NCBI GenBank assembly: GCA_963789955.1
Contig: CAWBMV010000012.1
Coordinates: 256,001 to 320,000 of the forward strand
Direction of reading: 5' to 3'
Length of the DNA: 64,000 nt
Origin: an uncultured Candidatus Rokubacteria bacterium
GTDB lineage: Bacteria; Methylomirabilota; Methylomirabilia; Rokubacteriales; CSP1-6
Both the position numbers and the translations under genes were made by a program. Below, piece after piece: positions 17,636-35,091 of this stretch (position 1 is its first letter; the number at the start of each line of letters is the position of its first letter). Under the pieces are notes generated by a model. The model was not told the origin of the DNA, made no database searches, and saw only the letters and a program-made list of their open reading frames with translations.

Positions 17636-19720
17636 ATGGCGATCGAGATCGGGAAGATCCGGAACGTCGGCGTCGTCGGTCACGGCGGCGTCGGTAAAAC
17701 ATCCCTCGTCGAAGCCATGCTGTTCGCGACAGGCGCGGTCACGCGCCTGGGCCGGGTGGACGACGGCTCGACCACGACCGACTTCGACCCGGACGAGATC
17801 AGGCGCAAGATCTCGATCAACACCTCGGTGGCGTACTGCGACTGGAAGGGCCACCACATCAACCTGGTCGACACCCCCGGGTACGGTGACTTCATCGCGG
17901 ATGCCCGCGCCGGTCTCCGGGTCGTCGAGGCGGCGGTCGTCGTGGTGGACGCCGTCGCCGGCGTCCAGGTCCAGACCGAGAAGGTGTGGAAGTTCGCGAC
18001 GGAGTACGACCTGCCGCGCGCGGTCGTCGTGAACCGCCTCGATCGCGAGCGCGCGGACTTCTTCCGCACGTTCGAGTCACTCGGGAAGCGGCTCAAGGGA
18101 CGGCTGGTCGCCCTGCATCTGCCCATCGGGGAAGAGTCCGGATTCCGCGGCTTCGTCGATCTCGTCAAGATGAAGGCGGTCACGCTCGCGGGTAACAAGC
18201 CCGCCGAGGCCGACATCCCCGGCGACCTCGCCGAGCGCGTCAAGGAGTATCGCGAGAAGCTCGTCGAGGCGGCCGCCGAGACCGACGACGACCTGCTGGC
18301 CAAATACCTCGAGGAAGGCTCGCTCGGCGAGGCCGAGATGCTGAAGGCGCTCCGCGCCGGCATCACCCAGGGCAAGCTCATGCCGGTGGTGTGCGCCGCC
18401 GCGTCGAAGTCGATCGGCGTCCACGCGCTGCTCGACCTGATCGTCGACGAGCTGCCGTCGCCGGCGGAGCGCCCTGAGGTCCCCGGCACCGACGTCAAGA
18501 CCAAGCAGGCGGCCACGCGGAATGCGGACGCGAAGGCTCCCGTGACGGCGCTGGTGTTCAAGACGCTCAGCGATCCTCATATCGGCAAGCTCTCGCTCTT
18601 CCGCGTCATGACCGGCACGCTCAGGGCCGACTCGACCTTGCTCAATCCGGCGCACAGCGCCCGCGAGCGCATGGGGCACGTCTCGTGGCTCCAGGGCAAG
18701 ACGCAGAAGAACGTCGAGGCGCTCGGGCCGGGCGAGATCGGCGTGGCCCAGAAGCTGAAGGAGACGCAGACGGGCGACACGCTCACCGAGGAGGCTCAGC
18801 CGTTCGAGCTGCCGAAGATCAAGTTCCCGGAGGCGGCGATCTCGTTCGCGATCCAGCCCAAGACGCGCGGTGACGAGGACAAGATCTCGACCGCGCTGGC
18901 GCGCATCGCCGAAGAAGACCCGACGGTCCACTACCACTTCGATCCGGAGACCAAGCAGCTCCTGGTTTCTGGTGTCGGCAGCTTGCACGTCGAGATGGTC
19001 GTCGAGCGCATGAAGCGCAAGTACAACGTCGACGTGAACCTGCTGCCGCCGCGCATCCCCTACAAGGAGACGGTGAAGGGGCGCGCCGAGGGGCAGGGCA
19101 AGTACAAGAAGCAGACCGGCGGGCGCGGCCAGTACGGCGACACGTGGCTCCGGGTCGAGCCGATGCCGCGCGGCGGCGGGTTCGAGTTCGTCGACGACGT
19201 CTTCGGCGGCGCGGTCCCGCGCAACTTCATCCCCTCGGTCGAGAAGGGCGTGCGCGACTGCATGAAGAAGGGGATCCTCGCCGGCTACCCGGTCGTGGAC
19301 ATGAAGGTCACGCTCTACGACGGCTCCTCCCACGACGTGGACTCCTCGGACATGGCGTTCCAGATCGCGGCGTCAATGGGACTCCAGAAGGTCTTCATGG
19401 ACGCCCGGCCGATCCTGCTCGAGCCGATCATGAACGTCGAGGTCACGACGCCGGCGGATCACGCCGGCGACGTCATCGGCGACATGAACTCACGGCGCGG
19501 CCGGATCGTCGGCATGGAGCCGGCGGGCGAGACCGCGGCGGTGCGCGCCGTGGTGCCGATGTCCGAGATGCTGACGTACGAGTCGAGCCTGCGCTCGATG
19601 ACCGGTGGTCGCGGCGGCTACTCGATGGAGTTCTCGCACTATGAAGAGGTCCCGTCCTTCCTCGCCGACAAGGTCATCAAGGAGGCGAAGTCGGAGCGGG
19701 AGAAGGCCGAGAAGCACTAG
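17636..19720 (+). CDS. fusA: elongation factor G paralog (EF-G2-like)
   Basis: GHGGVGKT, RKISI in place of canonical RGITI, DTPGY.DF, NRLD, KQTGGRGQYG; not in an rpsL-rpsG-tuf operon. Confidence 0.9.
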   Translation: MAIEIGKIRNVGVVGHGGVGKTSLVEAMLFATGAVTRLGRVDDGSTTTDFDPDEIRRKISINTSVAYCDWKGHHINLVDTPGYGDFIADARAGLRVVEAAVVVVDAVAGVQVQTEKVWKFATEYDLPRAVVVNRLDRERADFFRTFESLGKRLKGRLVALHLPIGEESGFRGFVDLVKMKAVTLAGNKPAEADIPGDLAERVKEYREKLVEAAAETDDDLLAKYLEEGSLGEAEMLKALRAGITQGKLMPVVCAAASKSIGVHALLDLIVDELPSPAERPEVPGTDVKTKQAATRNADAKAPVTALVFKTLSDPHIGKLSLFRVMTGTLRADSTLLNPAHSARERMGHVSWLQGKTQKNVEALGPGEIGVAQKLKETQTGDTLTEEAQPFELPKIKFPEAAISFAIQPKTRGDEDKISTALARIAEEDPTVHYHFDPETKQLLVSGVGSLHVEMVVERMKRKYNVDVNLLPPRIPYKETVKGRAEGQGKYKKQTGGRGQYGDTWLRVEPMPRGGGFEFVDDVFGGAVPRNFIPSVEKGVRDCMKKGILAGYPVVDMKVTLYDGSSHDVDSSDMAFQIAASMGLQKVFMDARPILLEPIMNVEVTTPADHAGDVIGDMNSRRGRIVGMEPAGETAAVRAVVPMSEMLTYESSLRSMTGGRGGYSMEFSHYEEVPSFLADKVIKEAKSEREKAEKH

Positions 19721-19754: not shown

Positions 19755-21159
19755 ATGATCTTTCAGCAGATCCTCAACGAAGAGTCGGGCTGTCTGTCCT
19801 ATCTGATCGGCTGCGGGGAGGCCGGGAAAGCTGCTGGTGGTCGATCCCGGCCGTGACCGCGTCCCCGAATACCTCCGCCTCGCCGCGAAGAAGGGCCTCA
19901 CGATCAGCCATATCCTCGAGACGCACACACACGCCGACCACATCTCGGGCGGTCGCGATCTGGCCGAGGCGGTGCGGGCGCCGATCCTCGTTCACCGGAC
20001 CGCCGGGGTCGCCTTCGAGCACCAGGAGGTGAGCGACGGCGACGAGCTCCGGATCGGCAGCGTGCGCTTCAAGATCGCCCACACGCCGGGCCACACGCCC
20101 GACTCGATCTGCCTGATGGTGTCGGACCTGTCCCGTGGCGAGGCCCCGTGGTTCGTCCTGACGGGCGACATGCTGTTCGTCGGCTCCGTCGGACGCCCGG
20201 ATCTCGGCGGCGCCCGCGCCGCGGAGGACGCGTGGGAGAGTCTGCAGCGCGTGCTGCTGCCGCTCGACGACAGCGTCGAGGTCTATCCCGCCCACGGCGC
20301 CGGCTCGGCGTGCGGCAAGGCGATGTCGGCCAAGTCGGGCTCGACGATCGGCTTCGAGCGCCGCTTCAACCCGGCGCTCCAGCTTCGCGGCCGCCAGGAG
20401 TTCGTCGACTTCCTCATGAAGGATCTGCCGCCGAAGCCGCCCTCGTTCGAGAAGATCGTCGGCAAGAACAAGGGGTTGATCTCGCTCGCCGCCGCCAAGC
20501 CGCGGCCGTTCACGGCCCGCGAGGCGTGGGACGCGGTGCAGCGGGGCGAGATCGTCGTGGACCTGCGCGATCCCGGCACCTACGGCGAGATGCACGTCGC
20601 CGGCGCCGTGAACGTGTGGATCGAGAGCCCGCAGTTCGCCGAGCGCGTCGCGGGCATGGTGCCGTCCGGTGCGTCCTTGCTGTTGCTGGCGCAGGGGCCG
20701 TCGGACCTCGACCGCGCCGTGCAGGCGCTCTCGCGCGTGGGCATCGACGAGATCAGCGGCTTTCTCCAGTGGGGCATGATCGAGTGGCGCAGCGAGGGCT
20801 TCCCGGTCGAGTCGGTGCCGCAGATCACGGTGTCCGAGCTCGCCGAGTGGCTCGAGCAGGGACGTGACGTGGCCGTGATCGACGTGCGCGAGCACTCCGA
20901 GTGGATCGACGGCCACATCGACGGCGCGATCCACCTGCCGATGCTCGAAGCCGCGGCGCGGCGCGGCGAGGTGCCGGCCGACCGGCCGAAGGCGGTGCTG
21001 TGCGCCGGGGGCCTGCGCTCGAGCACCGCGATCAGCGCGCTGAAACGCCACGGCCTGCAGGGATGGTACAACGTCACGGGCGGCATGACGGCGTGGAAAC
21101 GGTTCGGCTATCCCGTCGTGCGCTCGTCGTCGGACTCGGGCAGCGCTCCTCGCGCGTGA
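19755..21159 (+). CDS. MBL-fold persulfide dioxygenase-like protein fused to two rhodanese domains (frameshift near 19833)
   Basis: GCLSYLIG N-terminus, ETHTHADHISG, HTPGHTP, TGD.LF.G.VGRPDL, PAHGAGS.CG; C-terminal rhodanese LCAGGLRS. Confidence 0.87.
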
Positions 21160-21272
21160 TCGCCGACAGAAGTGCGAGCCGAAGCGGTGCCTCCGCTGAG
21201 GCGAGCCTGTGATCAACGGGCGGTGCAAGCGCTTCAGCAAAGCCGAGCTCGCTCGCTCCGCTGTACGCGGCG

Positions 21273-22406
21273 GTGTTCGGACGCCCGTGGCTGGTGTGGG
21301 GCTCCGCGGTGCTGGTCGCCACCCTCAACGTCTTCCTCTTCGCCTTCGATCGTCCGTGGACCGCCTCGGACGGGCTCCGGAACTGGGGCGACTGGGTGCT
21401 CACCGGCGTCGGTCTCGTCCGCCGCCCCGACCTCTTGCCGCCCTGGCTCTATTCGGGCTCCCTGCTGAACATCGGCGTCATCGTCGGCGGCACGATCGCG
21501 GCGCTCCTGTCGCGCGAGTTCGCGATCCGCGTGCCGGCGCGCGCCGAGCTCGCCAAGGGGGGCGCCGGCGGGCTCCTGATGGGCGTCGGCGCTGTGCTCG
21601 CCTTCGGCTGCAACATCGGCGGATTCTTCTCGGCGACGAGCGCGCTCTCGCTGTCGGGCCTCGGCATGATGCTCGGGCTCGGCGCCGGCGCGTTCATCGG
21701 GATCCGCTATCTGATCTGGGAAGTCGCGCACCGGCCGCAGTGGTCGCGCGGCGGCGGGCGCATCTATCTGCAGGCGGCGGGTCCGGCGACCGCGGGGCAC
21801 ACGTGGGCCGGAGCGGTCGTCGTCGCCCTGGTCGCGGTGGTGCTCGTTCTCTACACGCGGGCGGGCTACGGGCCGCAAGGCGTGTTCTTGCTCTTCGGCG
21901 CCGCGTTCGGTGTGGTGTTCCAGCGATCCCGGTTCTGTCTGGTGCGCGCTTTCCGTGAGCCGTTCATGACGGGCGACGCCGAGCACACCCGGGCGGCGGC
22001 GCTGGCGCTCGTCGTGGCGACGCTCGGCTTCGCGATCTTGAAGTTCACCGATCTCAAGGACAAGAGCGAGTGGGTGTTCCCGGCGGCGGGGTTCGGCTCG
22101 CTGGCCGGCGGGCTGGCTTTCGGCGTCGGGATGACGCTCGCGGGCGGCTGCGGCGCGGGCTCACTGTGGCGCGCGGGCGAGGGACAGGTGAAGCTCTGGG
22201 CGACCGTCGCGTGCTTCGCCGTGGGCGCGTCGCTGGCGCGGCTGATCGCCGTCCAGACCGGGCTTTTGCAGAAGCTCGGCGCCGCGATCTTCCTGCCGGC
22301 CTGGCTCGGCTGGGGCGGGGCGATCGTGTTGATCGTCGCGATCGCGCTCGCGTGGGCTATGCTGTCGACCTGGAACGAGGAAACGCACACATTCAGCGTG
22401 GTCTAG
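21273..22406 (+). CDS. YeeE/YedE (TsuA/SoxT-like) sulfur-compound transporter
   Basis: Polytopic protein with LAFGCNIG, RSRFC and LAGGCGAG Cys motifs; start uncertain. Confidence 0.85.
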   Translation: MFGRPWLVWGSAVLVATLNVFLFAFDRPWTASDGLRNWGDWVLTGVGLVRRPDLLPPWLYSGSLLNIGVIVGGTIAALLSREFAIRVPARAELAKGGAGGLLMGVGAVLAFGCNIGGFFSATSALSLSGLGMMLGLGAGAFIGIRYLIWEVAHRPQWSRGGGRIYLQAAGPATAGHTWAGAVVVALVAVVLVLYTRAGYGPQGVFLLFGAAFGVVFQRSRFCLVRAFREPFMTGDAEHTRAAALALVVATLGFAILKFTDLKDKSEWVFPAAGFGSLAGGLAFGVGMTLAGGCGAGSLWRAGEGQVKLWATVACFAVGASLARLIAVQTGLLQKLGAAIFLPAWLGWGGAIVLIVAIALAWAMLSTWNEETHTFSVV

Positions 22407-22417
22407 CGGAGGGGCGG

Positions 22418-23674
22418 ATGAAGGAGTCGACCCGAAGAGAATTCCTTCGGACGTCATCCTGGGCAGGGCTCGGGCTGTTCGCCGCGGGTTGCGCGCCGAA
22501 AGTGTCGGACTTCGCCCAGAAGACAGGCCGTCGCGTCGTCGTGATCGGCGGCGGATGGGGCGGCATGTCGGCGGCCAAGTACGTGCGCCTGGCCGATCCG
22601 TCGATCGAGGTCGTGTTGCTCGAGCCGAACAAGGAATTCGTGTCGTGCCCGTTCTCGAACCTGGTCCTGAGCGGCGTGCGCACGATCGACAGCCTGACCT
22701 TCGACTACGACGGCCTGCGGGCCCATGGCGTTCGCGTCCTGCACGAGACGGCCACCATGATCGAGCCCGACCGCAAGCGCGTGCAGGTCGGGAGTGACTC
22801 GCTTCCCTACGACCGGCTCATCGTTTCGCCGGGCGTCGAGTTCCAGTGGGAGCAGGTCGAGGGGCTCGCCGGCGCGCAGGACCGCGTGCTCCACGCCTGG
22901 AAGGCCGGCCCGCAGACCGTGGAGCTGGCGCGCCAGCTCCAGGCGATGCCGGATGGCGGCGTGTTCGTGCTGACGATCCCGCCGGCCGCCTATCGCTGCC
23001 CGCCCGGTCCGTACGAGCGGACGTGCCAGGTCGCGTGGTATTTGAAGAACAACAAGCCGAAGTCGAAGCTGATCGTTCTCGACGCCAACCCGAACATCAT
23101 CTCGAAGACCGCGCTGTTCCGCGCCGCCTGGGCCAACTACCCGAACATCGAATACCGCGGCTCGAACAAGGTCGTGAAGGTCGACCCCGGCGCACGCGAG
23201 GTGACGACGGAGCTCGGCGACAAGGTGAAGTACGACGTGCTGAACCTGATCCCGCCGCAGCGAGCGGGGACGATCGCGGTGACGGCGGACCTGGTCGGCG
23301 CCGACAAGCGCTGGTGCGAGGTCAACCATCTGACCTACGAGTCGGTGAAGCACAAGAACGTTCACGTGATCGGCGATTCGACGATCGGGCTGCCGGTACC
23401 GAAGTCGGGCAACGTCGCCAACGCGATGGGGAAGATCTGCGCGGTCGCGGTCGCGAGCCTGCTCAACGACAAGCCGGTGCCCACGATGGCGCCGGGGAAC
23501 ACCTGCTATAGCTGGGTGAGCGACCGGGAGGCGATCGCGGTCGTCAACAGCTACAAGATCGAGGGCGGCAAGGTCGTGCAGATCGAGCAGAAGCTCACGC
23601 CGGGCCAGTCGGAAGCGTGCGCGCAGAACGCGCTGGGGTGGGCCAACAGTATCTGGCAAGACATGCTCGGCTAG
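22418..23674 (+). CDS. fccB: flavocytochrome c sulfide dehydrogenase, flavoprotein subunit (FccB/SoxF-like)
   Basis: Tat motif TRREFL plus lipobox AAGC, GGGWGG, CPFSN, YRCPPGPYER, PKSG, NTCYS. Confidence 0.9.
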   Translation: MKESTRREFLRTSSWAGLGLFAAGCAPKVSDFAQKTGRRVVVIGGGWGGMSAAKYVRLADPSIEVVLLEPNKEFVSCPFSNLVLSGVRTIDSLTFDYDGLRAHGVRVLHETATMIEPDRKRVQVGSDSLPYDRLIVSPGVEFQWEQVEGLAGAQDRVLHAWKAGPQTVELARQLQAMPDGGVFVLTIPPAAYRCPPGPYERTCQVAWYLKNNKPKSKLIVLDANPNIISKTALFRAAWANYPNIEYRGSNKVVKVDPGAREVTTELGDKVKYDVLNLIPPQRAGTIAVTADLVGADKRWCEVNHLTYESVKHKNVHVIGDSTIGLPVPKSGNVANAMGKICAVAVASLLNDKPVPTMAPGNTCYSWVSDREAIAVVNSYKIEGGKVVQIEQKLTPGQSEACAQNALGWANSIWQDMLG

Positions 23675-23675
23675 G

Positions 23676-23802
23676 GCAGGCGAATGATAAAGGCCCATCT
23701 GCTTCGTTGGCGCCCTCGGCCGCACGCTCACCGTACAGAGAGTACGGCTCGCGTGCGGCCTTCGGGCGCCGCCTCGCAGCTGGACCTTTCTCATTCGCCT
23801 GC
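23676..23802. mobile_element. 127-bp fully palindromic MITE-like element
   Basis: Terminal IR GCAGGCGAATGA/TCATTCGCCTGC (12 bp perfect, about 27 bp with 3 mismatches) enclosing nested stems GGCGCCC, GGCCGCACGC and CCGTAC. Confidence 0.65.
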
Positions 23803-23842
23803 ACGGCTGCTCATACGCCTACATGGTGCGAAAGGACATAGG

Positions 23843-24430
23843 ATGCGACTCTTTGTGAGTCTGCTTCTCATGCTGCTGATGTTGGCCGGGCCGGTGTGGG
23901 CGGGGCCGTTGGATATGGCGGGGGCGCCGCAGGCGCTGGTGTGTAGTGCTTGTCATGGCTTTGCGGGGCAGAGTCGATCGAGCACGATGCCGATCCTCGC
24001 GGGCATGGCTCCCTGGTATTTCAAGAAGGCGATCTCGGATTACGCGGCGGGCAAGCGGCCGTCGCCCGAGATGGAACCCTACGCGAAGATGGTGCTGCAG
24101 TCGGGTGTGGATGACATCGCCGCCTACTTCGCAGCTCAGGCGCGGACGCCGTCGCCGGTCAAGCTCGAGCCCGCGGCGATCGAACGCGGGCGGGCCGCCG
24201 CCGCCCAGTGCACGCTCTGCCACGGCGCCTCGGGCAAGGGTGATCCGTCCAAGGGCGTGCCCGACCTCACGGGCCAGTCGCCGGGATATCTGCGCAACCA
24301 GATGCTCCTGTTCAAGGCCGACCGGCGAAGCCCCGGTGACGATCAGCTCAAGGCCGTGAAGGTGCTGATGCGGACCATCCCCGACGAGCAGATCTCCGAC
24401 CTCGCGGCCTACTGGTCGAGCGTCCGCTAA
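23843..24430 (+). CDS. diheme c4-type cytochrome (FccA/SoxE-like partner)
   Basis: Signal peptide, CSACH and CTLCH heme motifs, P.LAG and P.L.GQ; adjacent to fccB. Confidence 0.85.
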   Translation: MRLFVSLLLMLLMLAGPVWAGPLDMAGAPQALVCSACHGFAGQSRSSTMPILAGMAPWYFKKAISDYAAGKRPSPEMEPYAKMVLQSGVDDIAAYFAAQARTPSPVKLEPAAIERGRAAAAQCTLCHGASGKGDPSKGVPDLTGQSPGYLRNQMLLFKADRRSPGDDQLKAVKVLMRTIPDEQISDLAAYWSSVR

Positions 24431-25234
24431 GTGGCGTTCGCCGATGGAGCGATTCTCGTCGCGCTCGGGCTCGCGGTCGGAGCCTTCGGAACGCTCATCG
24501 GCGCCGGCGGCGGATTCATCCTCGTTCCCATCCTGGTCCTCGGCTACCACTTTCCGCCGGCTCAGGCCGTCGGCACGTCGCTGTCGCTCGTCTTTCTCAA
24601 CGCGGCGTCGGGAAGCGTGGCCTATCTTCGTCAGCGGCGGGTCGATCTCTCGCTCGGCTGGAAGTTCGCCGCGTCGACGATCCCCGGGGCCATCATCGGG
24701 GCCTTTCTCACGCGGTCGATCTCCTCGTCGCTGTTCAACCTGCTGTTCGGCATCGTGCTGCTCGCGATCGCGGTGCTGCTCTTCTCCGGCATCACGGCGG
24801 CGCCGTCGAGCCGCGCCGGGGTCCGCCAGGTGGTCGACGCCTCCCGTGAGGCGCACACCTACCGGGTCGACGTCTGGAAGGGCGTGGTCGTCAGCCTGCT
24901 CGTCGGGTTCATGTCGAGCATCCTCGGCATCGGCGGCGGCATCATCCACGTGCCGTTCCTGATCGTCGCGCTGAGCCTGCCGATCCACATCGCCACCGCC
25001 ACCTCCCACTTCGTCCTGAGCATCTCGGCCTTCGTCGGGGCGGTGACGTTCCTGGCGCTCGGCAACGTCGATCTCCGCACCGTCGCGCTCATGGGCGCCG
25101 GTATCCTCGTCGGCGCGCAGCTCGGGGCGCGGGCGTCGCTTCGCGCCGGCGCGACCTTGATCCGGCGGATCCTGGCCGGCTCGCTCGCCGTCGTCGGGCT
25201 CCGGATGATCTTGCAGGGGCTCGGCCGTGCGTAG
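24431..25234 (+). CDS. TauE/SafE family sulfite exporter
   Basis: Duplicated G.GGG..vP motifs (GAGGGFILVP, GIGGGIIHVP), A.GTS and ATATS. Confidence 0.88.
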   Translation: MAFADGAILVALGLAVGAFGTLIGAGGGFILVPILVLGYHFPPAQAVGTSLSLVFLNAASGSVAYLRQRRVDLSLGWKFAASTIPGAIIGAFLTRSISSSLFNLLFGIVLLAIAVLLFSGITAAPSSRAGVRQVVDASREAHTYRVDVWKGVVVSLLVGFMSSILGIGGGIIHVPFLIVALSLPIHIATATSHFVLSISAFVGAVTFLALGNVDLRTVALMGAGILVGAQLGARASLRAGATLIRRILAGSLAVVGLRMILQGLGRA

Positions 25235-25245
25235 GCTCGTCTGAC

Positions 25246-26796
25246 ATGCGCTACGGCTTCGTGATCGATCAGCGCCGATGCATCGGCTGTCACGCGTGCA
25301 CGGTGGCGTGTAAAGAGGAAAATCGTGTCCCGCTCGGCGCGTTCCGCACCTGGGTGAAATACATCGAGCGCGGCAGCTTCCCGAACACGCGCCGCTACTT
25401 CTCCGTGCTCCGCTGCAATCACTGCGACTCGGCACCCTGCGTGACCATCTGTCCGACCGTCGCCCTCTACCGGCGCGACGACGGCATCGTCGATTTCGAC
25501 GGCGCTCGCTGCATCGGCTGCAAGTCGTGCATGCAGGCCTGCCCGTACGACGCGCTCTACATCGACCCGGAGACGCAGACGGCGGCGAAGTGCAACTACT
25601 GCGCGCATCGGGTCGAGGTCGGCCTCGAGCCCGCGTGCGTCATCGTGTGCCCGGAGCAAGCGATCATCGCCGGCGACCTCGACGATCCCGCCTCGCAGAT
25701 CGCCACGATCGTGGCGCGCGAGCCGGTGCAGGTGAGAAAGGCCGAGCAGGGTACGCGGCCCAAGGTGTTCTACCTCGGCGCCGACGCCGCCGCGCTCACC
25801 CCGGAGCTTCAGATCCCGTCGGAGCGCTACCTCTGGGCCCAGCGACCGGCCGAGGAGGTCGACCTGATCAGGATGGTCGCCGCCGCGCAGGAGGCGGATC
25901 ACGCGCGCGGCGGCGCGGCGCTCAGCCGGCCCGTGTACGACGTGCCGCACGCCGTCCGCCCCTGGGGCTGGAAGGTCTCCGCGTATCTGTGGACGAAATC
26001 CGTCTCGGCCGGCGCGCTGCTCGTGGCGGCTTTCGCCGGCTCCGAATCGTGGGGCAGCCTCTTCACCGGCGCCGCGCCGGCGCTGAGTCTCCTCTTCCTG
26101 GCCATCACGACGGCGCTGCTGGTCGCCGACCTCAAGCGGCCCGAGCGCTTCGCCTACATCTTGCTGAAGCCGAACTGGCGCTCGTGGCTCGTGTGGGGCG
26201 CGTGGATCTTGATGGCGTTCGGCATCACCGGCGCCGTGTGGCTCATCGGCGGCGTGACGGGACGGTCGGGCCTGCTCCACCTGGCGCTGATTCCGTCGAT
26301 CCTGCTGGCGCTCGCCACCGCGGGCTACAGCGCGTTCCTGTTCGGACAGGCCGAGGGACGAGATTTCTGGCAGAGCCCGCTCGTGCTGCCGCACCTGATC
26401 ATCGCCGCCGTGGTCGCGGGCGCCGCGACCCTGTCGGTCGCTGCGGCGATGGCGCCGCTTCAGAGCACGGAGGCGGACCCGAGCGCGACCTTGTGGCCGC
26501 TCCTGTTCCTGTCCCTGGTGGCTCACGGTTTTCTCGTCGCGCTCGAGGTGTTCAATCGGCACGCGGTCCACGACGCGACGCTCGCGGCGCGCCTGATCCG
26601 GCGCGGACCGTATCGCGCGCGCTTCTGGGGCGGCGTGGTGCTGGGCGGCGTGGTCGCGCCGATGGCGCTGATGATCGCCGGCGCGGCATCGGACTCGACC
26701 ACCGTGAGCACCCTCGGCGCGCTGCTCGCGCTGGCCGGTCTCTGGGTGTGGGAGGACTTGTGGGTGAGGGCCGGGCAGTCGGTTCCGCTGAGCTGA
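25246..26796 (+). CDS. fused 4x[4Fe-4S] (NrfC/PsrB-like) and NrfD/PsrC-like membrane anchor
   Basis: CIGCHACTVAC, CNHC...CVTICP, CIGCKSCMQACP, KCNYC...C..CP, followed by WG..V..Y, DL.RP.RF and SWL.WG TM domain. Confidence 0.9.
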   Translation: MRYGFVIDQRRCIGCHACTVACKEENRVPLGAFRTWVKYIERGSFPNTRRYFSVLRCNHCDSAPCVTICPTVALYRRDDGIVDFDGARCIGCKSCMQACPYDALYIDPETQTAAKCNYCAHRVEVGLEPACVIVCPEQAIIAGDLDDPASQIATIVAREPVQVRKAEQGTRPKVFYLGADAAALTPELQIPSERYLWAQRPAEEVDLIRMVAAAQEADHARGGAALSRPVYDVPHAVRPWGWKVSAYLWTKSVSAGALLVAAFAGSESWGSLFTGAAPALSLLFLAITTALLVADLKRPERFAYILLKPNWRSWLVWGAWILMAFGITGAVWLIGGVTGRSGLLHLALIPSILLALATAGYSAFLFGQAEGRDFWQSPLVLPHLIIAAVVAGAATLSVAAAMAPLQSTEADPSATLWPLLFLSLVAHGFLVALEVFNRHAVHDATLAARLIRRGPYRARFWGGVVLGGVVAPMALMIAGAASDSTTVSTLGALLALAGLWVWEDLWVRAGQSVPLS

Positions 26797-26824
26797 GACC
26801 GTTCGCTATGACGATAGGACGACC

Positions 26825-29653
26825 ATGACAGATCGCGCGGCCATACCGCTCCATCCCGTGGCCCGGGAGATCGCCGAATCCCAGGGCGGCCTCAAGAGCT
26901 ACCCGCCCGTCGAGCGCTGGGACAACTGGGAAGAGTACGATCCGGTCGCGTGGCCGCAGAAGGTCAAGCGCCGCTACTCGCTGATCCCGACGATCTGCTT
27001 CAACTGCGAGGCGGGCTGCGGCCTGCTCGCCTACGTCGATCGCGAGACGCTCGCGATCCAGAAGTTCGAAGGCAACCCCGCCCACCCCGGGAGCCGCGGG
27101 CGCAACTGCGCCAAAGGCCCCGCGACGCTCAACCAGGTGACCGACCCGGAGCGGATCCGCTATCCGCTGCGCCGGGTCGGCCCCCGCGGGGGCGGGCGGT
27201 GGGAGCGGGTCACGTGGGACGAAGTGCTCGACGACATCGGCGGGCGCATTCGCAAGGCCCTGGTCGAGGGCCGGCAGCGCGAAATCATGTACCACCTGGG
27301 CCGGCCGGGACACGAGCTCGTCTATCTCCAGCGCGTCTTCCACGCCTGGGGCATCGACGGCCACAACAGCCATACGAACGTCTGTTCGGCGAGCGCGCGA
27401 GCGGGCTACGCCTTCTGGCACGGCATGGACCGCCCGTCGCCCGACCACGCCAACGCGCGCTTCATCCTGCTCCTGTCCTCGCACCTGGAGACCGGCCACT
27501 ACTTCAACCCGCACGCCCAGCGAATCATGGAAGCCAAGTCGCGCGGCGCCAAGATCGCCGTGTTCGACACGCGGCTCAGTAACACCGCGTCGATGGCCGA
27601 CTGGTGGGTGGCGCCGTGGCCGGGGTCGGAGTCCGCCGTGCTCCTGGCGATGGCGCATATCCTCGTGCGCGAGAAGCTCTACGACCGCGAGTTCGTCCGC
27701 CGCTGGGTGAACTGGGACGAGTACCTGCGCGAGGAGCGCCCCGATCTGCCGGTCACGTTCGACTCGTTCGAGCGCGCGATCGACGAGCTCTACGCGCACT
27801 TCACCCCGGAGTACGCCGAAGCCGAGAGCAGCGTCCCGGCCGCGACGATCGTCGAGATCGCGCGCGAGATCGGCCGCGCCGGCTCGGCGCTGGCGACCCA
27901 CATCTGGCGCAATACCGCCGCCGGCAACCTCGGCGGCTGGCAGGTCGCGCGCGCGCTCGAGCTGATCGTGGTGCTCATGGGCGCGGTCGGCACGCCCGGC
28001 GGCACCGCGCCCAGCGCCTGGAACAAGGCGGTGCCGGCGCCGCCGATGATGCCGCCGCCGGGCAAGATCTGGAGTGAGCTCCTGATGCCGCGCGAGTACC
28101 CGCTCGCGTTCTTCGAGATGAGCTTCCTGCTCCCGCATTTCCTGCGCGAAGGCCGCGGCAAGCTCGCGATGTACTTCACGCGCGTCTACAACCCGGTGTG
28201 GACGAATCCCGATGGGATGTCGTGGATCGAGGCGCTCACCGACGAGACGAAAGTGGAGCGCCACGCGTGCCTGACGCCGATCTGGAGCGAGACGGCGTGG
28301 TTCGCGGACTACGTGTTGCCGATGGGGCACGCCTCGGAGCGCCACGACCTCATGTCGCAGGAGACGCACGCCGCGCGGTGGATCGGCTTCCGCCAGCCCG
28401 TGCTGCGCGTCGCGCTCGAGCGAGCGGGCAAGCGCTTCGATCTCACCTGGCAGGCGCACGAGGCGGCCGGCATCGGACAGGTCTGGGAGGAGGACGAGTT
28501 CTGGATCGAGCTCTCCTGGCGGATCGACCCCGACGGCTCGCTCGGCATCCGGAAGTACTTCGAGTCGCCGTATCGGCCGGGCGAGAAGCTCCGCATCGAG
28601 GAGCAGTACCGGTGGATGTTCGAGAACAGCGTGCCCGGGCTTCCGGCCGCGGCCGCGAAGGAGCAGCTGACGCCGCTCGAGTACATGCGCAAGTACGGCG
28701 CGTTCCTGATCGAGGACGGCGTGTACCGCACGCACGAGCAGGCGCCCGGCGCGAAAGACCTGGACGGCGCGACCGTCGATCCCGTCACGAGTGTCATCAA
28801 CAAGGGCGGACAGCCGGTCGGCGTCGAGATCGACGGCCGGCGGCACATCGGCTTTCCCACGCCCTCACGCAAGCTCGAGTTCTTCTCGAACACCTTGAAG
28901 TCGTGGAAGTGGCCGGACCAGGCGGTGCCGAACTACATCCGGAGCCACGTCCACTGGTCGAACCTCGATCGCGCCAAGGGCGAGATGGTGCTGCTGCCGA
29001 CGTTCAGGCTCCCGACCTTGATCCACACGCGCTCGGGCAACGCGAAGTGGCTCTACGAGATCTCCCACTCGAATCCGCTCTGGCTCCATCCCGAGGACGC
29101 CACGCGGCTCGGCGTGGCGACCGGCGATCTCCTGAAGATCGCGACGCGGATCGGCCACTTCGTCGACCGGGTGTGGGTGACCGAGTCGGTGCGTCCCGGC
29201 GTGGTGGCGTGCTCACATCACCTCGGGCGGTGGCGTCTGCACGAGGACGCGGGCGGTGAGCGGTGGTCGACGTCGCTCGTCGATCTGAGCCGGCTCGACG
29301 CCGGCAAGTGGCGGATGCGTCAGCTCCACGGTCCGCGACCGTTTCCGAGCGACGATCCGGATTCGTCGCGGGTCTGGTGGAACGAGGCCGGCGTCCACCA
29401 GAACCTGACGTTCCCGGTCCAGCCCGATCCGGTCAGCGGCCAGCACTGCTGGCATCAGAAGGTGACCGTGATGCGGCCGGGCCCCGACGACCGTTACGGC
29501 GACGTCTTCGTCGACACGGACAAGTCGTTCGAGGTCTACCGCGAGTGGCTGGCGCTGGCCCGTCCGGCGCCCGGTCCCGACAATCTGCGGCGCCCGCTGT
29601 GGCTCCCGCGGGCGTTCAAGCCCGACGCGTCCGCCTACAAGATCGGGCCCTGA
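26825..29653 (+). CDS. molybdopterin (DMSO reductase family) oxidoreductase catalytic subunit, no Tat signal
   Basis: CFNCEAGC...NCAKG FS0 cluster, R..YPL.R.G.RG.G.W...WDE, HNSHTNVC, ETA..AD..LP, C-terminal molydopterin dinucleotide-binding domain. Confidence 0.9.
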   Translation: MTDRAAIPLHPVAREIAESQGGLKSYPPVERWDNWEEYDPVAWPQKVKRRYSLIPTICFNCEAGCGLLAYVDRETLAIQKFEGNPAHPGSRGRNCAKGPATLNQVTDPERIRYPLRRVGPRGGGRWERVTWDEVLDDIGGRIRKALVEGRQREIMYHLGRPGHELVYLQRVFHAWGIDGHNSHTNVCSASARAGYAFWHGMDRPSPDHANARFILLLSSHLETGHYFNPHAQRIMEAKSRGAKIAVFDTRLSNTASMADWWVAPWPGSESAVLLAMAHILVREKLYDREFVRRWVNWDEYLREERPDLPVTFDSFERAIDELYAHFTPEYAEAESSVPAATIVEIAREIGRAGSALATHIWRNTAAGNLGGWQVARALELIVVLMGAVGTPGGTAPSAWNKAVPAPPMMPPPGKIWSELLMPREYPLAFFEMSFLLPHFLREGRGKLAMYFTRVYNPVWTNPDGMSWIEALTDETKVERHACLTPIWSETAWFADYVLPMGHASERHDLMSQETHAARWIGFRQPVLRVALERAGKRFDLTWQAHEAAGIGQVWEEDEFWIELSWRIDPDGSLGIRKYFESPYRPGEKLRIEEQYRWMFENSVPGLPAAAAKEQLTPLEYMRKYGAFLIEDGVYRTHEQAPGAKDLDGATVDPVTSVINKGGQPVGVEIDGRRHIGFPTPSRKLEFFSNTLKSWKWPDQAVPNYIRSHVHWSNLDRAKGEMVLLPTFRLPTLIHTRSGNAKWLYEISHSNPLWLHPEDATRLGVATGDLLKIATRIGHFVDRVWVTESVRPGVVACSHHLGRWRLHEDAGGERWSTSLVDLSRLDAGKWRMRQLHGPRPFPSDDPDSSRVWWNEAGVHQNLTFPVQPDPVSGQHCWHQKVTVMRPGPDDRYGDVFVDTDKSFEVYREWLALARPAPGPDNLRRPLWLPRAFKPDASAYKIGP

Positions 29654-29717
29654 GGCGCGAATCGACTGTTGGGCTGGACGCATCCTGGATAATGCGAGAT
29701 TGGCAGGAGGGCGAACG

Positions 29718-30215
29718 ATGATGGACGGTTCCCGGATACCCCGGCGCCAGGCGTTGAAGACGCTCGGGGCGCTCGGCGTCGGCGCTGCCGCGAGCGGTCT
29801 CGCGCCGGTGAAGACCGCGCACGCGCAGGCCCCGACGCTCGGCCAGAACGAGAGCGTGCAGGACGCGATGAAGCGGCTCTTTGGCGGCAAGACCATCAAG
29901 GACGGCTCCGCCATCATCAAGTTCGACATCCCGCTCATCGCCGAGAACGGCAGCGTGGTGCCGGTGGCGGTCAGTGTCGACTCGCCGATGACCGCGTCGA
30001 GCTACGTGAAGCACATCTACGTCGTGGCCGACAAGAACCGTATTCCCGTCGTCACGCGGGTGACCCTGGCGCCGGAGGCGGGCAAGGCCTCGGTGGGCGC
30101 GAACATCCGGCTCGGCGAGACCGGTGAGGTGCGCGCGATCGTGGAGCAGAGCGACGGCACCCTGCTGCAGGTCGCGCGCGAAGTGAAAGTCACCGTCGGC
30201 GGCTGCGGAGGCTGA
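29718..30215 (+). CDS. soxY: sulfur carrier SoxY
   Basis: Tat-like RRQALK, P.IAENG..VP, C-terminal VKVTVGGCGG. Confidence 0.95.
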   Translation: MMDGSRIPRRQALKTLGALGVGAAASGLAPVKTAHAQAPTLGQNESVQDAMKRLFGGKTIKDGSAIIKFDIPLIAENGSVVPVAVSVDSPMTASSYVKHIYVVADKNRIPVVTRVTLAPEAGKASVGANIRLGETGEVRAIVEQSDGTLLQVAREVKVTVGGCGG

Positions 30216-30218
30216 GCG

Positions 30219-30552
30219 ATGTCAGACATCGGGAAGGTCCGGCTCCGCATTCCCTCGACGCATCAAGCCCGGTGACGTCGTTCAGGTGCGTTCGCTCGTG
30301 ATCCATCCGATGGAGCGCATCGAGCGCGACGCGCAGGGCAAGATCCTCCAGAAGAACTACAACTACATCAACAAGGTCACGGTGACCTACCTCGGGAAGA
30401 CCGTCGCGGTCTTCGATACGACCCAGAGCGTGGCCGAGAATCCGTTCTTCTCGTTCACGTTCAAGGCGACCGATCCGGGCCAGCTCAAGGTCGAGTTCCT
30501 CGACACGACGGGCGGCCGGTACGAAGGCACCGCCGACATCAAGTTCTCGTGA
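30219..30552 (+). CDS. soxZ: SoxZ (frameshift near 30260)
   Basis: VRSLVIHPME, SVAENPFFSF.F; directly after soxY. Confidence 0.9.
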
Positions 30553-30563
30553 TCGTCGCTGTC

Positions 30564-31877
30564 ATGACCGGCGCGACGGCGCGCCGGGCGCTGCGCTGGG
30601 CGGCGTTCGCGATGCTGAGCGCCGGCTGCGCTGGCACCAGCCCTCGACGTGCCCGACTACAACGCCGTCCCGAAGTGGACGTCGCGCGCGTTGCCCGAGG
30701 CGCGCGGCGAGTTCCGTACCGGGCCCGACGGCAAGCGGGTGGCGGTTCGCTACCCCGGATGGACGACGCGCGACTTCGATCGCTATCCGACCTACGCCTA
30801 CGGCGACGAGCGCATCGAGCCCTCGGTGCAGCGCGTGACGATGCCGGCGGGCGTCACCGGCGACGCCCAGAAGGGGCGCGCGCTCTTTCTGAGCCGGAGC
30901 AAGGGGCCGTGTATCGGCTGCCACCTGGTGCCGGGTGACGACGTCTGGCCCGCCGGAAGCGCCGGTCCCGACCAGTCCACGCTCGCCGATCGGAAGCTTC
31001 CGGATCAGTACCTGTATCAGGTGATCTGGGATGCTCGCGCGTACTTCCCGAACACGATCATGCCGCCGTGGGGAGCCACAGGGGTCTTGAGCTCCGAGGA
31101 GATCGTGCACGTCGTCGCCTATCTGCAGACGCTCAAGGGGCCGGCGGCGCCCGAGAAGGACCGGGAACGGAATCCGTTCACGCGTTCGAAGCCGGTGGGG
31201 TTCGGCGACAACCTCGATCCGACGAACAACCCGGCGGTGGTGCTGGCCGACGACGGCGAGGCGCTGTGGACCGCGCGCGGCCCCTCGGGCAAGGCGTGCG
31301 CCGACTGCCACGAGAGTGGCGCGGCGCGCGCGATGCGCGGCGTGGCGACGCAGTATCCAAAGTTCGTGAAGCCGTACGGGCGCGTGATGAGCCTCGAGGA
31401 TTTTCTCGAGGTGCACGCCCCGGAGACGACCGGCCGGGCGATGGCGAGCCAGTCGGCCGACAACCTCGACATGACGATGTTCGTCAAGCGCGCGTCGAAC
31501 GGGCTGCCGGTGAAGCGTCGACGTCGCGAGCCCCGAGGCGCGGGCGGCGCTCGCGCGGGGCAAGGCGACCTTCTATCGCAAGGTGGGCGAGCGGAACCAC
31601 TCGTGTGCCGACTGTCATACGACCGAGGCCGCGGCGGGGAAGTTCCTCGGCGGCCGCGTGCTCGCCGACGTCCGAGCCGGGATTGACCCGACATTTTCCG
31701 ACCTGGCGGACCGATCGCGCCGAGGTCTGGGACATGCGCAAGCGCTTCCAGTGGTGCATGACGCCACTCGGGATGAACATGCTCGCCGCCGATTCCATCG
31801 AGTACGCCGAGCTCGAGCTCTACCTGACCTCCTTCGACAACGGCAAGCCGCTCAACGTGCCCGGGATCCGCCACTAG
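30564..31877 (+). CDS. soxA: fused SoxX-SoxA triheme cytochrome lipoprotein (frameshifts near 30640, 31515, 31680)
   Basis: Lipobox SAGC; SoxX part G..LF...KGPCIGCH..TIMPPWG; SoxA part NPA...GE.LW..CADCH, second CADCH, FP.WR, RKRFQWC, LELYL. Confidence 0.82.
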
Positions 31878-31880
31878 CGC

Positions 31881-33583
31881 ATGGACGTCTCGCGGCGCGA
31901 TCTGGTCAAGCTGCTCGCGGTCGCGGCGGGCGCTGGGCTCGCACCGCGCCGTCTCGAAGCCGCCGACGGCCCGGACCGGCTCCTCGCGTTCGAGCCGCTC
32001 GGCAACGTGACACTGCTGCACATCACCGACGCCCACGCGACGCTCCGGCCGGTGTTCTATCGCGAGCCCGACTCGGTCATCGGCGTCGGCGCCGAACGCG
32101 GCCATCCGCCGTTTCTGACCGGCGCCGAGCTGCTTCGCGCGTATCACCTCTCGCCGGGGACCGTCGAGGCGTATGCCTACACGTATCTCGATTTCCCGGC
32201 GCTGGCCGCGCGATACGGGCGGATGGGGGGCTACGCGCATCTCGCCACCCTGGTCAAGCGGATCCGCGAGCAGCGCGAGGGGCGCACGCTCTTGCTCGAC
32301 GGTGGCGACACGATCCAGGGCTCGGCGACCGCACTCTGGACCCGCGGCGAGGACATGGTGCGGGTCTCGAACCAGCTCGGGGTCGACGTCTTCACGCCCC
32401 ACTGGGAGTTCGTGTACGGCATCGATCGCGTGAAGGAGCTCTTCGGCGATCGCGAGAACAAAGGGCTCTTCGCCGGCGACTTCGTCGCCCACAACGTCAC
32501 CGAGCTCAACTGGGCCGAGCGCCCGTTTCGGCCGTACACGATCCGGGAAGTGGGCGGTGCCCGCGTGGGCGTCATCGGCCAGGCGTTTCCGTACACGCCG
32601 GTCTCCCATCCCCGGCGCTTCGTGCCCGATCTCACGTTCGGTATCAGGGAAGACGGCATCCAGGCGCTGGTGACACGAGCTGCGGGACGGCAAGAAGGTC
32701 GACCTGGTCGTCCTGCTCTCGCACAACGGTGTCGCCGTCGACTTGAAGCTCGCCGGGCGCGTGCACGGGCTCGACGTCGTGCTCGGCGGTCACACCCACG
32801 ATGCGCTGCCGCAGCCGATCCGTGTGGGCCGCACGCTCGTCGTGAACTCCGGCTCGCACGGCAAGTTCCTGAGCCGCCTGGACATGGACGTCCAGCGCGG
32901 ACGCGTCGGCTCCTACCGGTATCGCCTGATCCCGGTCCTGGCCCAGGACGTCCCGGCGGATCCCGAGATGGCGCAGCTGATCGAGGAGATTCGCCGGCCG
33001 TACGAGGACAAGTTGAGCGAGCGGCTGGCGGTGTCCGACACCTTGCTCTACCGGCGCGGCAACTTCAACGGCACGTTCGACGAGCTGATCCTCGACGCGC
33101 TCTTGCGCGGCGCCGACGCGCAGATCGGCTTTTCACCGGGCTTCCGGTGGGGGATCACGATCGTCCCGGGCCAGGAGATCACGCTCGAAGACGTCTACGC
33201 GCACACCGCCGTGACCTACCCGAACACCTGGGTGCGCGAGATGACGGGGAGCGAGATCCACCAGGTGATGGAGGACGTCGCCGACAATCTGTTCCATCCC
33301 GATCCGTACTATCGGCAGGGCGGCGATATGGTCCGGCTGGGCGGGCTGACCTATACGATCGACCCGGCGAAGGGGATGGGCCGGCGCATACGAGACCTCC
33401 GCGTGGCAGGCCGGGCCCTGGAGCCGACGCGCCGCTACAAGTCGACGGGGTGGGCGAGCCTCACCGAGGCCGACGGCCCCCCGGCGTGGGACGTCGTGGC
33501 CGCGCACCTGCGAAGCCTCGGACGAGTCAAGATCGCGCCACGGGCGCGCGTCAAGGTCGTGGGACGCAAAGGAGAATGGATGA
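31881..33583 (+). CDS. soxB: thiosulfohydrolase SoxB (frameshift near 32672; stop position ambiguous)
   Basis: Tat SRRDLVK, GNVTLLHITD.H..L.P...REP, LDGGDT.QGS, HWEF, GQAFPY, LSHNG, GGHTHD, YRRGNFNG, SPGFRWG, DPYYRQGGDMVR. Confidence 0.93.
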
Positions 33584-34125
33584 GCCGTAGCCTCGCGCTC
33601 GCGGTGGCCCTGGTCGGGCTCGCGCTGCTGCCGGCCGACGCGGCCGACGATCCGCTCGACGAGCGGCTCTCGGCGTTCCAGGTCACACCGCTCGGCGACC
33701 AGGGCCCGCTGCCGTTCAAGCTCGAGTCGCTCGACGGCAAGCTCGTCTCGCTCGCCGACGTGCGCGGCCGGGTCGCCATGCTCTATTTCTGGGAAAGCAC
33801 CTGACCATACTGCGCGAGGGAGTTGCCCTCGACGATCGAGCGAATCCATCGGGAGCTCAAGGACGAGGGGTTGGTCGTGCTGGCGATCAACCTCGCCGAG
33901 AAGCGCGAGCTCGTCGCGACGTGGGTGAAGAGTCGCAACGTGACGTCGACGGTGCTGCTCGACGCGAGCAAAGAGGTCGAGAAGAGCTACCAGATCGCCT
34001 ACACGCCGACGGTGTTCCTGGTCGATCGCCGCGGCAAGCTGGTCGGCAAGGCGATCGGCGAGCGCGCATGGGCCGGCGAGCAGGGACGGGCGCTGCTGCG
34101 CCTGCTGCTCGCGCGCAAGGGCTAG
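33580..34125 (+). CDS. exported TlpA/ResA-like thioredoxin with in-frame UGA (probable selenocysteine, UPYC)
   Basis: AAAGGAG RBS, signal peptide, F.L..LDG..VSL.D.RG....LYFWEST-TGA(33802-33804)-PYCARELP, continuing in frame to V.AIN...PT.FLVDR.G, stop TAG 34125. Confidence 0.88.
33815..33831 (+). promoter_or_regulatory. putative bacterial SECIS hairpin
   Basis: CGAGGG-AGTTG-CCCTCG; stem starts 10 nt and loop 16 nt after the UGA, with GU in the loop. Confidence 0.72.
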
Positions 34126-34172
34126 CAGGCTGGCGTCCGCCTCGCATCTGAACTTTTTTCAGCAGCCTGCTA
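34122..34172. terminator. CTAG-bounded inverted repeat between convergent genes (MITE remnant / bidirectional terminator)
   Basis: CTAGCAGGCTG ... CAGCCTGCTAG; the TAG stops of both flanking genes lie in its ends. Confidence 0.55.
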
Positions 34173-35091
34173 GCGCCGGCGGCGCGGCGGCCCGTCGGCT
34201 TCGCTGAGCGCCGAACGCAGCGCCTGGAGCAGGGCGCGCGCGGCCGGCGAGAGCGGACGGGGACGCGGGTGGATCACGTCGAGGCTTCGGGCGATCGGCT
34301 CGGCGTCGACGATCTCGAACGCGACCAGGCTGCGCCGGCGTAGCTCGCGTCCGACCGCCAGGTGCGGCAGGAAGGCGAGCCCCATGCCGCGCTCGACCAT
34401 GCGTTTCGCCGTCTCGATCGTCTCGACCTCGAGCGCCACGTTCGGCACGAGCCCCGCCCGCCGGAACAATCCCTGGGTCAAGGTCCAGTCGCTCGAGCCG
34501 CGGTCGAAGAAGATCAGCGGCCGATCGGCGATCTCTTCGAGCCGCGCCCGGCGCTCGCGCTTCGGCCAGGACGCCGCCCGCCCGACCAGCACGAGCGGAT
34601 CGTCGCGCAGGCTCACGGTCTCGACTTCGGGGTGGTGGAGCGACCGCGCGAGGCCGATCTCGGCGTCGCCGCGCAGCACCATCTCGAGCACCTCCTTGGA
34701 GTGGCCGGAGCGGACGGTGATCATCACGTTGGGATGCGCGCTCTGGAATCGCTTGAGGACGTCGGGCAGGAGATAGGTGCAGATCGACAGCACCGCGGCG
34801 ATCTGGATCGCGCCGCCGCTCGCCGGACGGATGTCGTGCACCGCCTGACGCGCGAGCGCCACCGCCTGCAGCAGCTGTTCGGCGTGCGGGCGTAGCGCGC
34901 GGCCCGCCGCCGAGAGCGCGAGCCCGTGACCCTGTCCGGCCACGCTCGAAGAGCCGCACCTTGAGCGAATCCTCCAGGGTGCGGATGCGCGCGCTCACCG
35001 CCGGCTGCGTCAGACGGAGCGCCGCCGCGGCGCGACGAAAGCCGCCGAACGTCCCGACCGCGAGAAACGCTTCGACCTGAGGGATATCCAC
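34170..35091 (-). CDS. LysR-type transcriptional regulator (frameshift near 34935)
   Basis: F..AA..L.LTQPAVS.RI..LE..L...LFER HTH in ORF 34159..35091; effector domain in ORF 34170..34943. Confidence 0.92.

Follow-up and report, generated by a model that had tools for sequence, protein, structure and literature searches.

A block of twelve genes in the genome of an uncultured Candidatus Rokubacteria bacterium combines a truncated Sox system with genes that probably provide an outlet for the sulfane sulfur that remains bound to SoxY. The block is part of a stretch of 64,000 nucleotides (NCBI GenBank assembly GCA_963789955.1, contig CAWBMV010000012.1, positions 256,001 to 320,000), here called the window, and occupies positions 19755-34125; all genes read in the + direction and are separated by about 0-170 nt. 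According to a survey of 2026, complete oxidation by truncated Sox needs rDsr, SoxCD or sHdr (PMC13500833). We consider it probable that the block specifies an aerobic periplasm-to-cytoplasm route for sulfide and thiosulfate, in which a CstB-type persulfide dioxygenase (PDO) and a molybdenum (Mo) enzyme replace sHdr or rDsr and Apr-Sat-Qmo. The original prediction of twelve co-directional genes, from a dioxygenase-rhodanese fusion to a selenocysteine (Sec) thioredoxin, was borne out by strand and spacing and by family scans (Pfam, NCBIfam) of the window proteins, which agree with every gene name given. SoxXA, SoxYZ and SoxB stand in one cluster, as in truncated Sox systems, and are intact in relatives.

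The strongest evidence that the block replaces the known partner systems is a swap at its locus. The gene in front of it codes for an EF-G paralogue (17636-19720, + strand, named by NCBIfam) that is outside the pathway but marks the site, since in relatives it precedes either the block or an sHdr operon. Type II sHdr genes, with the operon arrangement defined as in PMC11094781, adjoin this same paralogue in G095, G102, G114 and G115. An orthologue of the YeeE of the window (63-67% identical) is located within the sHdr operon of G095, G102 and G114, and fccBA adjoins the operon in G095 and G102. In G087 the same soxYZ-XA-B-trx is preceded by dsrAB-C-MKJOP, and in G114 and G115 the genes upstream of the same soxYZ-XA-B are sat-aprBA-qmo. 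We compared 16 genomes of the genus, 83 of the family and 97 of the order, the latter of at least 90% completeness; the search for dsrA covered 98 genomes and found it in four, and at least seven genomes have a type II sHdr operon. Rokubacterial Dsr has been read as probably oxidative (PMC6018805). Within the family, the Mo enzyme is absent from 8 of 9 genomes with dsr or sHdr versus 5 of 74 others, and the CstB gene from 6 of 9 versus 6 of 74. Conversely, 21 of the 44 genomes with soxB have neither soxC nor dsr nor sHdr, and 18 of these 21 hold both dioxygenase and Mo enzyme. These tallies include three genomes flagged as unpublished (G050, G110, G111); without G111 the latter count is 17 of 20.

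The twelve-gene block is conserved in one family of Rokubacteria. In the genus, soxB was found at full strength in 15 of the 16 relatives. The Mo gene is joined to soxY on a single stretch in 14 of the 16; G006 has a contig end between the two, and the locus of G008 was outside the comparison. Whether the left half of the block, i.e. the genes in front of soxY, is conserved together with the sox genes had been named as a possible point of failure, and the linkage in 14 of 16 relatives speaks for it. Six genus relatives, as well as G058, G064, G069 and G070, carry everything from dioxygenase to soxB on a single contig. G070, an assembly of 4 contigs with a completeness of 95%, gave no match for soxC, dsrA or HdrB.

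None of the known Sox partners was found in the source assembly (G000), which is 87.2% complete. The window had been described as free of soxCD, dsr and shdr; this now extends to the whole assembly, in which neither soxCD, dsrAB, sHdr nor aprAB was found, and thus the presence of these genes elsewhere, which could have refuted the prediction, did not materialize there. For soxC, the best score was 130 bits against a cut-off of 420. Searches by tblastn with rokubacterial DsrA, DsrC, DsrM, DsrF, sHdrC1, B1, A and H, AprB and QmoC gave no match at E<1e-5 in G000, and the remaining rokubacterial partner queries retrieved distant homologues only (24-37% identity). G000 thus lacks dsrAB-C as well as shdrC1B1AH(C2B2/B3)-lbpA, both of which the same searches found in relatives. 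The first searches for dsrA and aprA, in 41 genomes, found none and had no positive control, which the wider dsrA search provided.

G000 does have three molybdopterin-oxidoreductase genes of the sulfite-oxidase type, but none is SoxC, and the top scorer is SorA beside SorB. Candidates for SoxC, sHdrB and LbpA in G000 were rejected as SorAB, as MsrP-like, YuiH-like and GlcF/LutA/FadF-like CCG proteins and as gcvH, several of these names being our assumption from sequence and gene order; the only GcvH-like gene sits in a glycine-cleavage cluster. An HdrB-like match in G016 was rejected because it is located in a succinate-dehydrogenase-like cluster. The genes for the periplasmic sulfite dehydrogenase SorAB lie at G000:C22:35036-36570, and SorA is frameshifted near its end.

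The first gene of the block (19755-21159, + strand) codes for a fusion of a metallo-beta-lactamase (MBL) domain and rhodanese domains (Pfam). The protein aligns over its full length with 3TP9 and 3R2U, the best matches in the PDB; the latter we take to be the CstB of Staphylococcus aureus. The His-His-Asp Fe triad, the loop G196/G198/C201/G202 and C408 with R370 and R413 (CstB numbering, PMC12934615) are all present, and in 17 of 17 homologues neither the triad nor the Cys-Gly loop nor the rhodanese Cys with its two Arg varies. CstB of S. aureus produces thiosulfate as sole product, releases no free sulfite and does not need glutathione (PMC12934615). Judged by these residues, the dioxygenase is probably of the CstB type and yields thiosulfate; the original prediction, in which a PDO-rhodanese makes sulfite, is therefore probably wrong in this detail. 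No gshB scored above cut-off in 5 of 5 genomes, which fits a glutathione-independent, CstB-type enzyme. In several relatives TusA is fused to the dioxygenase or precedes yeeE, which recalls the YeeD partner that is described to cleave thiosulfate to persulfide and sulfite (PMC11582611).

The second gene (21273-22406, + strand) encodes a sulfur transporter of the YeeE/YedE family (Sulf_transp) with 377 amino acids (aa). Cys113, Cys222 and Cys293 are invariant in 21 of 21 sequences and match the three cysteines of SoxT1, SoxT2 and TsuA. In contrast to TsuA (6LEO) the two halves of the protein are swapped, its length exceeds the usual 330-350 aa and there is no soxSRT context; the best NCBIfam match, YedE/FdhT, is below cut-off. 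By its layout it is not a SoxT or TsuA, but by analogy it would work like SoxT. Within type II sHdr operons, the YeeE-family gene is flanked by shdrB3 and etfB (L272:13787-14962, L266:7744-8874, L270:9412-10581). Since SoxT1 and SoxT2 are reported to be absent from type II sHdr genomes (PMC11582611), the permuted YeeE could be the missing importer there.

At the other end of the block is an exported ResA/TlpA-like redoxin with a U-x-x-C motif (33580-34125, + strand), whose in-frame UGA is at 33802-33804. Among 28 distinct homologue stretches, 22 have TGA at this position and 6 a Cys codon (a Cys variant is that of G006); a SECIS-like hairpin of 5 bp, 11 nt past the UGA (33816-33830, + strand), is present in 22 of 22 TGA versions and in 1 of 6 Cys versions. 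Both selA and tRNA-Sec are present in G000. A 69-nt fold is no more stable than shuffled sequences (z -0.11). From the alignment of UGA with Cys, the hairpin and the Sec machinery we conclude with good confidence that the redoxin is a selenoprotein. By analogy to SoxS and DsbA (PMC11582611) it would strip the sulfane sulfur from SoxY.

Between these two ends lies the putative sulfite-oxidizing complex. A protein that joins an Fe-S subunit and a membrane anchor of the NrfD type (Fer4-NrfD, 25246-26796, + strand), without export signal, is followed by a Mo-bisPGD enzyme (26825-29653, + strand), a predicted sulfite:quinone oxidoreductase. The latter has no Tat motif and would therefore face the cytoplasm, as in SoeABC, and its invariant Cys187 is the likely Mo ligand. 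Among the matches listed, its closest relatives are up to 97% identical and mostly from Rokubacteria/Methylomirabilota; at least 600 relatives were confirmed, and the neighborhoods of 80 loci that were kept were read, none of which is from Chlorobi. The fused Fe-S/NrfD gene is present in 72 of the 80. Among cultured organisms, Rhodococcus jostii RHA1 has a homologue that is 59% identical and Thermomicrobium roseum one that is 65% identical. An AlphaFold2 model of the Mo enzyme is of low confidence (mean pLDDT 56.6).

The complex resembles SoeABC and PSRLC3 in its setting among sulfur genes and in its make-up: a Mo-bisPGD enzyme with Cys as ligand that would face the cytoplasm, an Fe-S subunit and a membrane anchor. 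SoeABC is encoded by separate SoeA-B-C genes and has a DmsC-type anchor, whereas here a fused BC precedes A and the anchor is NrfD (Pfam NrfD only), so that the layout is not that of SoeABC. The likeness to PSRLC3 is drawn from descriptions, among them that of PMC6338057. ComA is encoded in 7 of 9 Mo loci of family f4, Xsc in L127, taurine/sulfonate genes in L144 and TauE in 8 of 56 loci, and in Rhodococcus jostii DsrE-TusA and a CstB-type gene are neighbors. Thus, the informative neighbors appear to point to sulfite handling, and by this context the enzyme is a probable sulfite:quinone oxidoreductase. In the loci of family f4 (L183, L185-L187, L189-L191), ComA (phosphosulfolactate synthase) and a 332-aa gene of no given family are located just upstream of NrfCD-Mo.

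Taken together, a route can be proposed. By the established chemistry of the families, SoxXA and SoxB would convert thiosulfate to sulfate and SoxY-bound sulfane sulfur, and FccAB would oxidize sulfide to sulfane sulfur. FccB/SoxF, the flavoprotein of flavocytochrome c sulfide dehydrogenase, has a Tat signal and matches 1FCD with E 4e-100 (22418-23674, + strand); the FccA-like diheme cytochrome c (23843-24430, + strand) was identified by family scans. The Sec-redoxin would free the sulfane from SoxY, as SoxS and DsbA suggest, and YeeE would import it, as suggested by SoxT1A and by its location inside sHdr operons. From two persulfides and O2 the CstB-type enzyme would then make thiosulfate, to go by its conserved catalytic residues. 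This thiosulfate may be exported by the TauE/SafE-family transporter (24431-25234, + strand; Pfam E 3e-53) or by YeeE back to SoxXA and SoxB, or split by rhodanese/TusA to sulfite and persulfide; the sulfite may be oxidized to sulfate with reduction of quinone by the NrfCD-Mo complex, as its context suggests, or by SorAB after export. Two heme-copper oxidase subunit I motifs are encoded in G000. We calculate that in either branch about 4 of the 8 electrons of each thiosulfate would be conserved, and the route would thus serve detoxification and supply supplementary energy. The idea that the left half replaces rDsr or sHdr is supported by the absences in G000, the linkage within the genus and the locus swap; sulfite as product of the dioxygenase probably does not hold, and the designation SoxCD-less does not extend to the entire lineage.

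Several observations weigh against this interpretation. Its reactions in the organism are deduced from genes, residues, synteny and presence or absence. The genomes behind the swap counts are kin and not independent. In a single-gene tree of EF-G the loci with CstB at the site fall into one clade, which also holds one TusA-YeeE-only locus, and the sHdr loci branch outside of it in two places; the swap may thus be a single historical event, and the p-values exaggerate it. Three of the seven sHdr genomes retain a CstB-type gene elsewhere, G074 holds both sHdr and the Mo enzyme, and with a threshold of 1e-20, close to the scores of the matches (1e-22 to 1e-26), the number of seven is a lower bound. 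Most of the 47 non-rokubacterial Mo loci are without a recognized sulfur gene. The best family of the redoxin is ResA, below cut-off, and in 6 of the 80 loci its gene adjoins the Mo gene with soxYZ missing; it may instead serve cytochrome c maturation. Furthermore, 71 of the 83 family genomes have the CstB gene and 70 the Mo enzyme but only 44 have soxB, and 13 of 14 genomes of a family without soxB have the Mo enzyme; their co-occurrence with sox is therefore partly background. In 7 of 16 soxY-bearing Mo loci, soxYZ is found without adjacent soxXA or soxB, and in 5 of 5 such genomes tested soxB is below cut-off; the left half is thus not dedicated to Sox.

These distributions, and the fact that the cst operon of S. 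aureus with its CstB and TauE is a detoxification system (PMC12934615), would suit a left half that serves general sulfide and persulfide detoxification and sulfite disposal; soxXA-soxB would then be adjacent by functional clustering, and the sulfane mostly be shed as polysulfide or elemental sulfur. We consider this unlikely: it does not explain why the module sits at the site of the sHdr operon around the same YeeE, nor the loss of the Mo enzyme in dsr and sHdr genomes, and the genes are on one strand and tightly spaced. The same module with a simpler chemistry is conceivable as well, if the dioxygenase released free sulfite that is oxidized directly by the Mo enzyme or exported by TauE to the periplasmic SorAB. 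The genes for dioxygenase, TauE and Mo enzyme share the operon, SorAB is encoded in G000 (C22:35036), and Q13 of CstB is a Cys and L205, invariant in CstB, a Met in the enzyme of the block, whose product could differ for this reason. But the enzyme retains the Cys-Gly loop as well as the rhodanese Cys with its two Arg, the residues that make CstB release thiosulfate only (PMC12934615), and free sulfite as product appears quite unlikely. The chance that the substrate of the Mo enzyme is thiosulfate, tetrathionate or polysulfide rather than sulfite, so that it would use the product of CstB directly, is small: the nearest named families of the Mo enzyme are PhsA and PsrA, and the Fe-S part scores best on TtrB, but the identity to PhsA is just 26-30% over about half the length, neighbors of the Mo enzyme elsewhere make or use sulfite, and sat-apr-qmo occupies its position in G114 and G115.

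Could SoxCD encoded elsewhere complete an ordinary Sox cycle in trans, the gene having merely been lost from the assembly of G000? This assembly is only 87% complete, which limits claims of absence, and in 9 of the 16 genus relatives SoxC, unlinked to the operon, scores above cut-off and is followed by a monoheme SoxD; a split copy is present in G006. Of the 97 order genomes, 44 have soxB and 29 soxC; 18 have both, 26 soxB only and 11 soxC only. The enrichment of soxC in genomes with soxB (18 of 44 versus 11 of 53) is weak (p 0.045, from kin that are not independent), but unlinked soxC in 18 of 44 soxB genomes is a point in favor of completion in trans. On the other hand, 26 of the 44 soxB genomes, all at least 90% complete and including the 4-contig assembly G070, have no soxC, 11 of the 29 soxC genomes have no soxB, and soxC was found in none of the loci of this operon type. 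Such orphan soxCD is neither needed by nor restricted to Sox genomes, and could complete the cycle where it is present; for the block as a whole we regard completion in trans as highly improbable. The label SoxCD-less is thus correct for the operon and for G000 but not for the lineage. L214 (G049:C17) holds a full soxCD-Y-Z-A-B cluster of its own, more distant in type, with a SoxB 56-58% identical; a similar soxB is present in G052, G054 and G067. In L216 (G112:C39) a deletion has removed the NrfCD-Mo pair except for ~98 codons that remain before soxY, and the genome holds two soxC genes.

That a PDO aids truncated Sox has already been published. According to PMC9959259, a soxCD deletion mutant of Cupriavidus pinatubonensis clears sulfane by PDO and induces yeeE/yedE, and 21 of 62 species with incomplete Sox have a PDO and no DsrAB. 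Beggiatoa leptomitoformis is described as a natural case of PDO-assisted incomplete Sox (PMC11507549). The route proposed here has in common with both that sulfane of a SoxCD-less Sox system would enter the cytoplasm, be oxidized by PDO and return as thiosulfate. There, however, the system is an engineered mutant or consists of scattered genes, and the PDOs are glutathione-dependent (PMC9959259, PMC11507549), whereas in the block a CstB-type enzyme and a dedicated Mo complex belong to a single conserved operon, at sites where relatives have sHdr or dsr. Hyphomicrobium denitrificans (PMC11582611) likewise has soxYZ, soxXA and soxB without soxCD, the YeeE-family importer SoxT1A with three Cys, and a periplasmic thioredoxin (DsbA/SoxS) that was proposed to free the sulfane of SoxYZ, to which the redoxin of the block is comparable by adjacency. 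It differs in that G000 lacks sHdr-LbpA, the halves of the importer are swapped, the redoxin is a predicted selenoprotein, and the cytoplasmic oxidizer is a CstB-type dioxygenase. With the cst operon of S. aureus the block shares the PDO-pseudorhodanese-rhodanese architecture, the His-His-Asp triad, the Cys-Gly loop, the rhodanese Cys with two Arg and the TauE neighbor, but it has no CstR, CstA or Sqr, is joined to FccAB, YeeE, Sox and the Mo enzyme, and differs at Q13 and L205.

In the literature searched, neither this operon nor the swap is described; the search comprised full texts and few subscription journals, and the supplements, which were outside of it, may list such genomes (PMC13500833, PMC11094781, PMC11582611). 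The survey of 2026 retains a category of genomes that lack both rDsr and SoxCD, and the term PDO is absent from its main text (PMC13500833); PMC5712423 has no sox or sulfur term. Also related are PMC6338057, PMC8232776, PMC10100899, PMC10504309 and 10.1101/2020.05.14.086363. It is possible, and we put it forward tentatively, that the operon offers truncated Sox a fourth and genetically dedicated way to completion beside SoxCD, rDsr and sHdr, in which the CstB-type dioxygenase displaced type II sHdr before a retained YeeE, NrfCD-Mo replaces Apr-Sat-Qmo as sulfite:quinone oxidoreductase, and SoxYZ with the Sec-redoxin would be a general periplasmic sulfane shuttle, also without SoxXA and SoxB. 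If the proposed route is true, it explains how these Rokubacteria of soil and sediment finish sulfur oxidation, of which 21 of 44 soxB genomes in one family are without all three known partners and 18 carry the module. It would also give a function to a very widespread family of Mo enzymes (at least 600 relatives) and extend CstB from detoxification in pathogens to energy metabolism.

Relative to aligned relatives, seven single extra bases were found in the window, near 19832 (MBL), 30258 (soxZ), 30638, 31514 and 31682 (soxXA), 32673 (soxB) and 34934 (lysR), by which four of the twelve genes of the block plus lysR are affected. Contigs of near-identical strains are without the extra base at 5 of the 7 places, the other two being outside the rows compared. 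In a ribosomal-protein region of G000, 3 of 20 genes are likewise broken by frame changes; by sequence and gene order we take these to be EF-Tu, L15 and RpoA. Because near-identical strains lack the extra bases and housekeeping genes of G000 are similarly broken, the frameshifts are most likely assembly errors. Their reading as pseudogenes was rejected on account of the relatives, the near-identical contigs and the broken housekeeping genes.

The sox genes follow each other on the + strand: soxY (29718-30215) with a GGCGG arm (TIGR04488, above cut-off), soxZ (30219-30552, family scans), a soxX-soxA fusion (30564-31877), which in relatives is an intact triheme open reading frame (ORF), and soxB (31881-33579). 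In the assembly, soxB is without its 3' stop codon and reads in frame into the redoxin gene (window 33560-33600); the stop is present in relatives, and its loss is a deletion scar or an assembly error. In many relatives a gene for an exported DsrE-like protein lies between soxB and the redoxin gene (443 letters in two sequences compared). The loci with soxYZ beside the Mo gene but without soxXA and soxB are L105, L118, L119, L125, L126, L167 and L173, and in L118, L119 and L167 the arm of SoxY is a variant that ends in GCAA and not in GGCGG. L050, L052, L053, L055, L058, L061 and L096 have, inserted between Mo gene and soxY, a further soxXA that is inverted and about 57% identical, mostly accompanied by a gene with a DUF255 thioredoxin domain; the window lacks a second soxXA. 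A second cluster in G000 (C15:70450-74008) encodes, as named from sequence, cytochrome c and FccB-, SoxY-, SoxZ- and SoxA-like proteins beside an enzyme of the xanthine-dehydrogenase type.

A scan of the block for promoters and terminators gave nothing exceeding shuffled sequence. Contigs of RNA libraries (X15, X16) span both halves of the block, but such contigs show neither level, strand nor co-transcription and were not counted as evidence. In the slot of TauE, most relatives hold a different TauE (about 28% identical). A gene for a LysR regulator (34170-35091, - strand, family scan) converges on the block; it follows trx in many but not all relatives, and its relation to the block is unproven. 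The intergenic palindromic repeat at 23675-23842, which is outside the pathway, recurs about ten times elsewhere in G000, reaches a very high depth in contigs from soil, and falsely extends the ORF of the cytochrome at its N terminus.

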